DNA of 64,000 nt from Burkholderiales bacterium (GTDB lineage Bacteria > Pseudomonadota > Gammaproteobacteria > Burkholderiales > SG8-39), in contig DATIGN010000085.1 in the NCBI GenBank assembly GCA_035454685.1, positions 33,125 through 97,124 on the forward strand, given 5' to 3'. A program made the translations under genes and the position numbers. The notes under the pieces are model-generated. The model was not told the DNA's origin. It searched no databases and saw only the letters and a list, made by a program, of their open reading frames with translations. Of the stretch, positions 36,154 through 38,447 are shown piece by piece. Numbering within the stretch: position 1 is the stretch's first letter; each line of letters starts with the position of its first letter.

Positions 36154-37848
36154 GTGAACAAGCCCGTAGAGCTCGCAACCCTGACTGGCGCGGAAGCCGT
36201 CGTGCACATGCTGCGTGCCCATGGCGTCGACACGATCTTCGGTCTGTGCGGCGATACCAGCCTGCCGTTTTACGACGCGCTCGCCCGCTCGGCGTTCATC
36301 AGGCATGTGCTGACCCGGGATGAACGGCATGCCGCATATATGGCCGACGGCTATTCGCGCGTGAGCGGCAGGGTCGGCGTGTGCGAGGGTCCGTCGGGCG
36401 GCGGCGCGACCTACATCCTTCCGGGGCTGGTGGAGGCCAACGAATCTTCGATCCCCATTCTGGCCATCAATACCGATGTTTCAGTTTCCTCCCGGGGGAA
36501 ATTCACGCTGACGGAGCTCGACCAGCGCGCATTGATGAAGCCGCTGACGAAATGGAATGCGGTGCTCGACCGTTCGGCCGACATCCCGCGCGTGATGCGC
36601 AAGGCGTTCGAGGCCATGACCACCGGCCGTCCCGGCACCGCGCATATCGCGCTGCCGTTCGACGTGCAGGACGGACCCGTGGACCGCAACGATGTGTGGG
36701 CTGATCCGACACTGGGTAGTTTCCCTTCCAGGAGAGTCGGGCCCGATGCTTCCCTCGTGGAACTGGCGGCTAGGCTGTTGCGGAAAGCCAAGCAGCCGCT
36801 CTTCATCTGCGGCGGCGGGGTGGTGCTCTCCGGTGCCGAAGGTGAATTGGCCACTCTGGCGGAAAACCTCTCTGCACCGGTCGCCACGACCATCAGCGGT
36901 AAGGGCTCGATCGACGAGCGCTGTGCGCACTCGGTCGGCGTGGTGGGCTCGAATGGCGGCACGCCAGAGACGCGAGCTGTCGTCGATGCCGCAGACGTGA
37001 TCGTGTTCGTGGGCTGCCGTGCCGGCTCGGTCACCACCGAGCGCTGGCGCCACCCACAGGCAGGAAAGGCGAGGATCATCCACATCGATGTGGACCCGGC
37101 GGTGCCGGGTACCAACTACAAGGTCGACGTCCCCCTCATTGGCGATGCTCGCCTATGCCTTTCGGCATTGATCGACGCGTTGGATGGCCACAAGCGGGAA
37201 GCGGACCTTTCGTTCGTAGATCACCACAAACGAACCAAATTCGAGAAGTTCGAAGCGCTCGCACGCTCCGATGACCAGCCGATCAGGCCCGAACGGGTCG
37301 TTTTCGAGCTGCAGAAGAATCTCGATCGCGATGCGATCGTGGTGGCTGATCCCGGCACGCCTTGCCCCTATCTCTCCGCCTACTATGTCGTTAAGGGTAC
37401 CGGGCGCCGCTACTTCTCCAACCGCGCGCACGGCGCGCTCGGCTATGCGCTCGCGGCCGCGATCGGCGCGCACGTGGCGCGGCCGCAGGTGAAGACGGTG
37501 GCCGTAATGGGCGACGGCAGCTTCGGCATGTGCGTCGGCGAGCTCGAGACCGCGGTTCGGCTGAAGCTCCCGGTCACCTTCATCGTGATCGCCAACGCGG
37601 TCTACGGCTGGATCAAGGCGGGACAGAAATCGGGCTACCAGCGGCGCTATTTCTCGGTGGATTTCGGCGTCACGGACCATGCGAAGGTCGCAGACGCATT
37701 CGGCGTGAAGAGCTGGCGGGTTTTCGAACCCGGCAAACTGGGTTCCGCGCTGAAAAGCGCGCTCTCGCACGACGGTCCCTCCTTGGTGGACATCGGCTGC
37801 CAGCCGCTGCACGAGGCCAATGCCCCGGTCTCGGAGTGGGTCGCATGA
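36154..37848 (+). CDS. thiamine diphosphate-dependent enzyme (acetolactate synthase large subunit-like)
   Basis: 564 aa. N-terminal Pyr domain LTGAEAVVHMLRAHGVDTIFGLCGDT...GPSGGGATY, middle domain, and the ThDP motif GDGSFGMCVGELETAVRLKLPVTFIVIAN. GTG start. Confidence 0.9.
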   Translation: MNKPVELATLTGAEAVVHMLRAHGVDTIFGLCGDTSLPFYDALARSAFIRHVLTRDERHAAYMADGYSRVSGRVGVCEGPSGGGATYILPGLVEANESSIPILAINTDVSVSSRGKFTLTELDQRALMKPLTKWNAVLDRSADIPRVMRKAFEAMTTGRPGTAHIALPFDVQDGPVDRNDVWADPTLGSFPSRRVGPDASLVELAARLLRKAKQPLFICGGGVVLSGAEGELATLAENLSAPVATTISGKGSIDERCAHSVGVVGSNGGTPETRAVVDAADVIVFVGCRAGSVTTERWRHPQAGKARIIHIDVDPAVPGTNYKVDVPLIGDARLCLSALIDALDGHKREADLSFVDHHKRTKFEKFEALARSDDQPIRPERVVFELQKNLDRDAIVVADPGTPCPYLSAYYVVKGTGRRYFSNRAHGALGYALAAAIGAHVARPQVKTVAVMGDGSFGMCVGELETAVRLKLPVTFIVIANAVYGWIKAGQKSGYQRRYFSVDFGVTDHAKVADAFGVKSWRVFEPGKLGSALKSALSHDGPSLVDIGCQPLHEANAPVSEWVA

Positions 37849-38447
37849 TCGAGAGAAGCCATCACGACGTGGGCGGACTGCCCGGCGGCCGCGTAGAGCC
37901 CACCGAGCACGACTACGCTGATTGGGAGCGGCGCATCGACGCAATGGCGGTGCTGCTGTGGGGCATCAAGGGAACGAGGAAGCTGCTGACTGTGGACGAG
38001 CACCGCCGCGCGATCGAATTGCTGCCGCCGCAGATGTACGACTCGATGACGTATTACGAGAAGTGGATCTTCGCGCTCGCGCAGTGTCTGATCGCCCGCG
38101 GCGTGATCACGAGCGAGGAGCTCGCCCGCAAGATGGCCGGTGTCGTCGGTCCGAGAATGCACCACGACATGGGCGGTCTGCAAGCGGGGGAGGTGGATCC
38201 GAGCGAGCACGACTATGCTGCATGGGAGCGGCGGATCGACGCGCTGTCGGTGATTCTGGGACGCAACGCGAAGGTCACCGTGGACGAGCGGCGCAAGGCG
38301 ATAGAGTCGCTGCCTCCCGACGCCTACGACAAGATGGGCTATTACGAACGATGGACCGCGGCGCTTGCGCACACGTTGCTTCAGCGGGGGATGATTACTA
38401 CCGAGGAGCTCGCGCGCAAGATGGCCGAAATTCAGGGCCGAGAATGA
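37845..38447 (+). CDS. nitrile hydratase beta-subunit N-terminal domain protein, tandemly duplicated (two copies in one polypeptide)
   Basis: Track ORF 37530-38447 trimmed to ATG 37845 (ATGA overlap with the ThDP gene). Residues 1-104 and 105-200 both read HHD[VM]GGL...EHDYA.WERRID...TVDE.R.AIE.LPP..YD.M.YYE.W..ALA..L..RG.IT.EELARKMA, matching the N-terminal half of NHase beta (MxGxHDxGG start, WE.R.FA helix). Confidence 0.8.
   Translation: MIERSHHDVGGLPGGRVEPTEHDYADWERRIDAMAVLLWGIKGTRKLLTVDEHRRAIELLPPQMYDSMTYYEKWIFALAQCLIARGVITSEELARKMAGVVGPRMHHDMGGLQAGEVDPSEHDYAAWERRIDALSVILGRNAKVTVDERRKAIESLPPDAYDKMGYYERWTAALAHTLLQRGMITTEELARKMAEIQGRE

Follow-up and report, generated by a model that had tools for sequence, protein, structure and literature searches.

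A gene predicted to join two unlike beta-N modules of an activator-less, cobalt-type nitrile hydratase in uncultured Burkholderiales

Two beta-N modules in one gene

We analysed a 64,000-nt stretch of a Burkholderiales genome assembly (GCA_035454685.1, contig DATIGN010000085.1, positions 33,125 to 97,124; hereafter the window), in which one gene, here called NN', encodes two joined, non-identical copies of the N-terminal module (beta-N) of the nitrile hydratase (NHase) beta subunit, a His-type module followed by an Arg-type module (Table 1). The NN' protein contains two NHase_beta_N domains (PF21006; 8.7e-43 in Pfam), and its halves, searched separately, match the same family at 3e-20 (copy 1) and 8.5e-22 (copy 2). 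Self-alignment by BLASTP pairs residues 4-103 with residues 104-200 at 60 identities in 99 positions (61%; 74% positives; one 4-residue gap; E = 2e-43), which bears out the repeat that an earlier reading of the bare sequence (the original prediction) had reported at 37845-38447. Copy 1 carries a 4-residue insertion relative to copy 2, in the WGIKG region, and the last helix of copy 1 is connected by a short variable linker to the arm of copy 2, whose conserved sequence is R-x-H-H-D-M-G-G.

That prediction had spoken of an exact 300-nt tandem duplication. Two copies do lie 300 nt (100 codons) apart, with the codons of Ser5 and Met105 at 37857 and 38157 as it had placed them; the duplication is not exact, however, since an indel leaves copy 2 shorter by 12 nt and the nucleotide identity over aligned codons is 193/288 (67%). 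Resemblance at the DNA level, which it had also noted, exists to this extent and is mostly codon bias on conserved residues: where the two copies have the same residue, 38 of 60 codons are identical, compared with 31.4 ± 3.6 expected from operon codon usage alone, and we therefore consider the duplication to be old. Synonymous sites between the copies are nearly saturated.

Pfam agrees with the predicted order, in which one gene with two beta-N domains precedes separate genes for the C-terminal part of beta (beta-C) and for alpha. PF21006 is found only in 37845-38447, PF02211 only in 38444-38731 and PF02979 in 38728-39327, confirming that the beta subunit is split. We took as the criterion for a cobalt-type (Co-type) enzyme the motif VCTLCSCYP, in which Thr and Tyr mark the Co type, together with a score above the curated alpha cutoff. 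The alpha protein passes as an NHase alpha subunit (264.6 bits against TIGR01323; cutoff 249.85) and fails as a thiocyanate hydrolase (SCNase) gamma subunit (229.8 bits; cutoff 291.45), and its best solved relatives are Co-type alpha subunits (~1e-60), with that of Pseudonocardia thermophila as the top match in the PDB. Directly after CSCYP, at 39071-39073, it reads CTLCSCYPRMLLG where P. thermophila has CYPWPVLG, a Trp-to-Arg difference also present in the sequence of PDB entry 3vyh.

Both halves of NN' are recognized as beta by TIGR03888 (copy 1, 1.5e-17, 64 bits; copy 2, 1.2e-18, 68 bits), and the accessory model TIGR03889 gives each of them a far poorer score (6e-3, 16.5 bits and 1e-3, 18.8 bits) below its cutoff of 46 bits; on these scores we reject the idea that one half is an activator homologue. 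A hidden Markov model (HMM) scan of all open reading frames (ORFs) in the 64-kb window found no further beta-N-like or activator-like ORF, in line with the predicted lack of an accessory gene. On these domain and model scores, NN' almost certainly encodes the tandem beta-N subunit of a split Co-type NHase, and the enzyme would be a variant of the activator-less group of these because it has two beta-N modules per polypeptide, not one.

Table 1 Features of the NN' operon (positions in the window)
Feature	Position	Strand	Basis
Glyoxalase_3/VOC gene, divergent	35062..35931	-	Domain annotation; kept beside operon in relatives
Thiamine diphosphate (ThDP)-dependent enzyme, acetolactate-synthase-like	36154..37848	+	Pfam/TIGR; under every equivalog cutoff
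NN' gene, two NHase beta N-terminal domains, 200 amino acids (aa)	37845..38447	+	Translation, Pfam, TIGR models, ~200-aa full-length orthologues
Repeat copy 1, His-type module, residues 4-103	37854..38153	+	BLASTP self-alignment, residue register
Short variable linker, residues 98-103 (AGVVGP)	38136..38153	+	Orthologue alignment, AlphaFold 2 (AF2) model
Repeat copy 2, Arg-type module, residues 104-200	38154..38444	+	BLASTP self-alignment, residue register
beta-C gene, 95 aa, NHase_beta_C (PF02211) only	38444..38731	+	Pfam; ATGA overlap with NN'
alpha gene, 199 aa, PF02979, Co-type (VCTLCSCYP)	38728..39327	+	Pfam, TIGR; ATGA overlap with beta-C
pxpB	39345..40055	+	Conserved downstream gene
pxpC	40052..41026	+	Conserved downstream gene
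pxpA	41005..41772	+	Conserved downstream gene
Old yellow enzyme (OYE)-type flavin oxidoreductase	41759..42874	+	Conserved downstream gene

Relatives, copy number and operon context

To survey relatives of NN', 5.8 billion proteins were searched, yielding 1513 matches. The best 120 of these, which we examined, are all ~200 aa long, 72-99% identical and equipped with PF21006; their annotation goes no further than 'hypothetical protein' or 'nitrile hydratase beta subunit', and their named sources are Burkholderiales metagenome-assembled genomes (MAGs). The search for other tandem beta-N proteins that the original prediction had called for thus finds the fused form, its ORF uninterrupted and complete, in more than 120 clusters of metagenomic proteins drawn from independent samples, and it occurs in about 17 species-level MAGs. 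Few double-domain proteins appear among representatives at 50% identity, the close relatives there being mostly single-domain proteins of 100-150 aa.

Contigs from one genome per species contained 110 stretches with a relative. The best 80 of these 110 were taken and, with other loci, annotated with the window proteins and the domain HMM, giving 87 loci for the counts. A single N gene is present in 59 of the 87 (two of them, L015 and L022, being fused genes cut by contig ends), a fused NN' gene in 15, two separate N genes in nine, and an N-alpha fusion without a C domain in two; the last two loci (L006 and L007) combine a double-N gene with an extra single-N gene and belong to other families. 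All carriers of the fused form are uncultured, mostly soil Burkholderiales MAGs, and the cultured matches Virgifigura deserti and Beijerinckia sp. L45 have a plain N-C-alpha arrangement. The tandem form is common in soil metagenomes and absent from cultured strains.

A few loci stand apart from this distribution. One whole contig of 2745 bp (L008), 100% identical to the window over NN', is binned as Gemmatimonadales, the other close relatives being Burkholderiales, and is probably a mis-binned short contig. Frameshifts in long-read assemblies account for an apparent second alpha gene in L017 and L018, and a frameshifted read-through for the 418-aa protein P0123, which is not a true fusion. A beta-N-alpha fusion protein occurs in the same operon type in two independent MAGs (L040 and L057, where its gene comes right after the ThDP-enzyme gene) and in one metagenome protein (P0125; 283 aa); no beta-C gene was detected there, so that this form would miss the second conserved arginine, beta-Arg157. 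In L006 (6001-6844), the 186-aa tandem beta-N protein P0139 and a single beta-N gene lie between pntA-like and pntB transhydrogenase genes, with no NHase alpha or beta-C gene near them, and the 1.2-kb contig L007 shows a double-N gene, then a single-N gene, and nothing else.

For the domain tree and the position counts we used a family of 121 members. In the tree, its 121 first copies and its 121 second copies are reciprocally monophyletic as two sister clades, and the single-N proteins lie outside both. Averaged over pairs of orthologues, identity is 0.787 in copy 1 and 0.785 in copy 2, from which we conclude that the copies are equally constrained; when one copy is compared with the other, identity is 0.646 inside the same protein and 0.664 across proteins, which argues that there is no concerted evolution. 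Because within-protein identity does not exceed that between proteins, and with 38 identical codons against the 31.4 ± 3.6 expected, recent duplication or gene conversion is ruled out.

The loci with two separate N genes offer a view of how the fused gene may have come about. In all nine, the N genes stand ahead of C and alpha and overlap by stop and start codons, with GTGCGTAG in seven (L028, junction near 7300; L030, L031, L032, L034, L042 and L056) and ATGCTTGA in two (L063 and L064). At the ATGCTTGA loci the second N gene begins MLERSHHD, near the usual family N-terminus MIERSHHD, and in several fused genes the junction reads ...ERSHHD, resembling a remnant of that N-terminus. Since relatives in the same operon have one N gene (the commonest state), two overlapping genes or a fused gene, copy number is labile and an origin by fusion, from two coupled N genes, is plausible. 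The original prediction had likewise suggested a fusion of separate genes, and the overlapping loci and ERSHHD junctions favour it; its own argument, that Met105 is a relic start, does not hold. Among 120 orthologues, the residue at the place of Met105 (38157-38159) is Met in only 54, Ser in 40 and Gln in 26; the alignment pairs Met105 with Ser5 of copy 1 and not with Met1, and no good Shine-Dalgarno sequence precedes 38157.

In a maximum-likelihood tree of alpha plus C, the fused loci all fall into one clade (ultrafast bootstrap (UFBoot) 72) that also holds single-N loci, the two-gene loci fall into a neighbouring clade among many single-N loci, and at least five state changes of the N module are needed. 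As to the order of fusion and fission, the key node has a UFBoot of 25-27 and the Fitch ancestral state is ambiguous. Some fused groups have the domain order His-Arg and others Arg-Leu, which suggests that the fusion arose more than once or was remodelled.

Around these genes, the order divergent VOC gene, ThDP enzyme, N module or modules, C, alpha, PxpB, PxpC, PxpA and OYE is kept across the single, two-gene and fused forms. In the window, the genes for the ThDP enzyme, NN', beta-C and alpha form a chain of ATGA stop/start overlaps, the ATG of NN' sharing its ATGA with the stop codon of the ThDP-enzyme gene, to which it is translationally coupled and which lies upstream of N in most relatives; pxpB starts 17 nt past the alpha gene. 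Genes of a Liv-type ABC transporter are divergent and upstream of the operon, together with the Glyoxalase_3 gene. Nearly all Burkholderiales relatives show tight coupling of the NHase genes to those for the 5-oxoprolinase-type proteins PxpB, PxpC and PxpA and the OYE reductase, and some single-N operons have an amidase in place of, or beside, the ThDP enzyme. One might speculate that the amide product forms a lactam, which the Pxp proteins of the operon then open; our literature search found nothing linking nitrile hydratase with oxoprolinase, and the combination of ThDP enzyme, NHase, PxpABC and OYE may represent a new nitrile catabolic route in soil bacteria. On two Joint Genome Institute (JGI) contigs with P0105, the operon is interrupted at the alpha-pxpB and pxpC-pxpA junctions by a small unannotated ORF, a weak PIN-domain gene and a pilin-like gene, and merB/merC/merR follow directly downstream.

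Active-site residues and a tethered pair of modules

Residues were numbered by alignment to the beta subunit of Pseudomonas putida, with the register fixed by the PDB mutant names beta-E56Q and beta-H71L. The equivalents of beta-Arg52, beta-Tyr68/69 and beta-Trp72 are R54, Y70/Y71 and W74 in copy 1 and R150, Y166/Y167 and W170 in copy 2, all invariant or nearly so across 120 orthologues, with R54, R150, Y70 and Y166 strictly invariant, and no single, two-gene or fused module that we examined departs from this Arg/Tyr/Tyr/Trp set. Published work documents Tyr68 and Trp72 as residues of the pocket (PMC7193024). In the beta-C protein, R24 falls at the position of beta-Arg157 by an inferred alignment offset to 1ire_B.

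The most informative of the residue findings concerns the equivalent of beta-Phe51, which is H53 in copy 1 and R149 in copy 2. All 24 paired loci (15 fused, nine two-gene) are heterotypic there, with one Arg and a partner that is His or Leu; two-gene pairs are Leu+Arg or Arg+His, and in the 121-member family copy 1 has His in 120 of 121 and copy 2 has Arg in 121 of 121. Five other positions besides 53/149 also show fixed differences between the copies. Single-N operons mostly have Leu at this position, and some have only an Arg-type module (L027, L036 and L045) or only a His-type module (L023-26 and L025), so that each module type can apparently serve alone.

A framework for reading this pairing is provided by the split NHase of Streptomyces canus, whose genes encode, in this order, AnhD (a beta-N homologue), AnhE (a beta-C homologue) and AnhA (alpha), with no activator (PMC7329996). 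The native enzyme is AnhD2E2A2 (PMC7329996), and an AnhD2A trimer, comparable to alpha-e2 of Rhodococcus, is its chaperone for metal and for self-subunit swapping (PMC7329996; review PMC11573777). Given these complexes, a pair of N modules per complex would be the expected unit and no oddity, whereas the original prediction had suggested an unusual stoichiometry with two beta-N arms per alpha as one option. Because the beta-N piece is present twice in the complexes of characterised split NHases, and binds alpha in the form of AnhD2A, we propose that NN' acts as a covalently tethered hetero-pair of beta-N modules. One alpha/beta-C pair would dock on each module to give (NN')C2alpha2, with two chemically non-equivalent active sites, and a sub-complex of NN' with alpha may fill the role of AnhD2A in cobalt loading and subunit swapping. 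We put the probability of the reading as a whole, a split Co-type NHase with a single-chain pair of unlike beta-N modules serving two alpha/beta-C pairs, at roughly 0.55; its quaternary and mechanistic part could go either way in about equal measure.

An extension of this proposal is an asymmetric NHase, in which one particle would hold two active sites with unlike pockets (His or Arg at the beta-Phe51 position), serving two nitriles or leaving one site to cobalt loading or regulation. We consider it less likely than not. If true, such an enzyme could act on two different nitriles, probably polar or anionic ones, and the Arg+His and Arg+Leu pairs would record a transition from homodimer to heterodimer to single chain in a metalloenzyme family.

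Replacement of a missing activator, which the original prediction offered as the meaning of one copy, is an unlikely reason for the duplication. The beta model outscores the accessory model by far for both halves, single-N relatives of the same operon also lack an accessory gene (as in L003, where alpha overlaps pxpB), and a single-module AnhD already acts as the chaperone in the form of AnhD2A (PMC7329996).

Several points weigh against the tethered pair. From the translational coupling one would expect NN', C and alpha in about equal amounts and not at 1:2:2, and the fixed His/Arg asymmetry would also fit one catalytic and one accessory module. The pocket role of beta-Phe51 comes from the P. 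thermophila structure papers, and the literature examined confirmed only Tyr68 and Trp72 as pocket residues. The beta-N proteins of L006, from the operon with pntA and pntB and no alpha gene nearby, keep most of the Arg/Tyr/Tyr/Trp residues, so that retention by itself is no proof of active-site contact and these residues may be partly determinants of the fold. Finally, the AF2 monomer of NN', a poor model (predicted local distance difference test (pLDDT) 66.5, predicted template modelling score (pTM) 0.43) in which arms 1-14 and 101-114 are disordered, shows no confident packing between the two domains; its Foldseek matches in the PDB are weak, every one of them an NHase or SCNase beta chain.

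The first two of these points fit an alternative that we consider unlikely, a 1:1:1 protomer of alpha, NN' and C in which one beta-N module completes the alpha active site while its partner, built into the same chain, is a stabilising or chaperone-like module, the counterpart of one e, P14K or AnhD molecule in maturation complexes of the alpha-e2 type. It would accommodate equimolar coupled translation and the fixed asymmetry at 53/149 and the five other positions, activators are beta homologues, and AnhD2A and alpha-e2 hold two beta-N-like molecules per alpha (PMC7329996); moreover, in the distant tandem beta-N proteins P0183 and P0209 one copy lacks the N-terminal arm and the Tyr68 equivalent. 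Yet in the NN' family both halves evolve at the same rate, keep all catalytic-site residues in 120 of 120 orthologues and score as beta and not as accessory protein, each module type occurs alone in otherwise identical operons, and the single-N relatives manage with no accessory gene at all.

Less probable still is a bridging subunit, whose two modules would bind alpha/C units of different protomer pairs and so build larger assemblies. The idea draws an analogy with the N-terminal extension of SCNase beta in the SCNase dodecamer. SCNase beta matches copy 2 at chain residues 45-140, so that it has ~44 extra N-terminal residues, and the AF2 model, with its flexible arm/linker segment 101-114 and lack of defined module packing, would suit such a role. 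Against it, the linker before the copy 2 arm is short (~6 residues), and the sequences hold no evidence of higher-order assembly. A recent or artefactual duplication without functional meaning (assembly error or decaying pseudogene) has nothing for it except the repeat itself and is refuted by the intact full-length ORF in over 120 clusters from independent samples, the fused form in about 17 species-level MAGs, nearly saturated synonymous sites and equal constraint on both copies, leaving it a negligible chance.

Nitrile hydratases are industrial catalysts (acrylamide, nicotinamide), and their engineering often targets the beta pocket and subunit fusion. If the tethered pair is real, a natural enzyme with two unlike beta-N modules in one chain would offer a ready-made template for designing NHases that are asymmetric or have greater stability, and NN' could clarify how a beta-N piece doubles as cobalt chaperone in activator-less enzymes. 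Within one operon family, the series from a single gene through two genes to a fused gene is also a clean natural example of evolution from homomer to heteromer to fusion.

Comparison with known nitrile hydratases

Among known systems, the S. canus enzyme (ScNHase; strain CGMCC 13662) resembles that of the window in being Co-type, in its split beta, in the order N-C-alpha and in the absence of an activator gene; the likeness of AnhD to NN' is drawn from the published description. Unlike ScNHase, NN' carries both beta-N modules in one chain, and these are non-identical (61%; His versus Arg at the beta-Phe51 position); moreover, NN' comes from an uncultured member of the Burkholderiales, in an operon with the ThDP enzyme, PxpABC and OYE. 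ToyJKL of Streptomyces rimosus, the toyocamycin NHase, is likewise a three-polypeptide enzyme; it forms an (alpha-beta-gamma)2 heterohexamer, a dimer of trimers (PMC8574189), and is reported, as cited in PMC7329996, to need no activator. It differs in having one beta-N-type polypeptide per trimer, no tandem module and a place in a nucleoside antibiotic pathway.

The SCNase of Thiobacillus thioparus (PDB 2DD4) shares the splitting of NHase beta, with a beta chain that is N-like, an alpha chain that is C-like and a gamma chain that is NHase-alpha-like, and accordingly copy 2 matches 2dd4_B and the beta-C protein matches 2dd4_A; its beta chain, however, is a single N-like domain with a non-homologous N-terminal extension. 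The NHase activators, or self-subunit-swapping chaperones (NhlE, NhhG and P14K; TIGR03889), are weak beta homologues, two of which bind one alpha (alpha-e2), and unlike the modules of NN' they are separate proteins encoded beside alpha and beta. A 2026 review of NHase forms lists alpha-beta with activator, three-subunit and fused alpha/beta enzymes, and a 2024 review adds an alpha-activator fusion. Neither review mentions a tandem beta-N arrangement and we found no description of one in the literature searched, in agreement with the original prediction, which knew of no described enzyme with this arrangement. Compared with the known three-piece, activator-free, Co-type NHases, the tandem beta-N subunit is a modest variation that has not been described.

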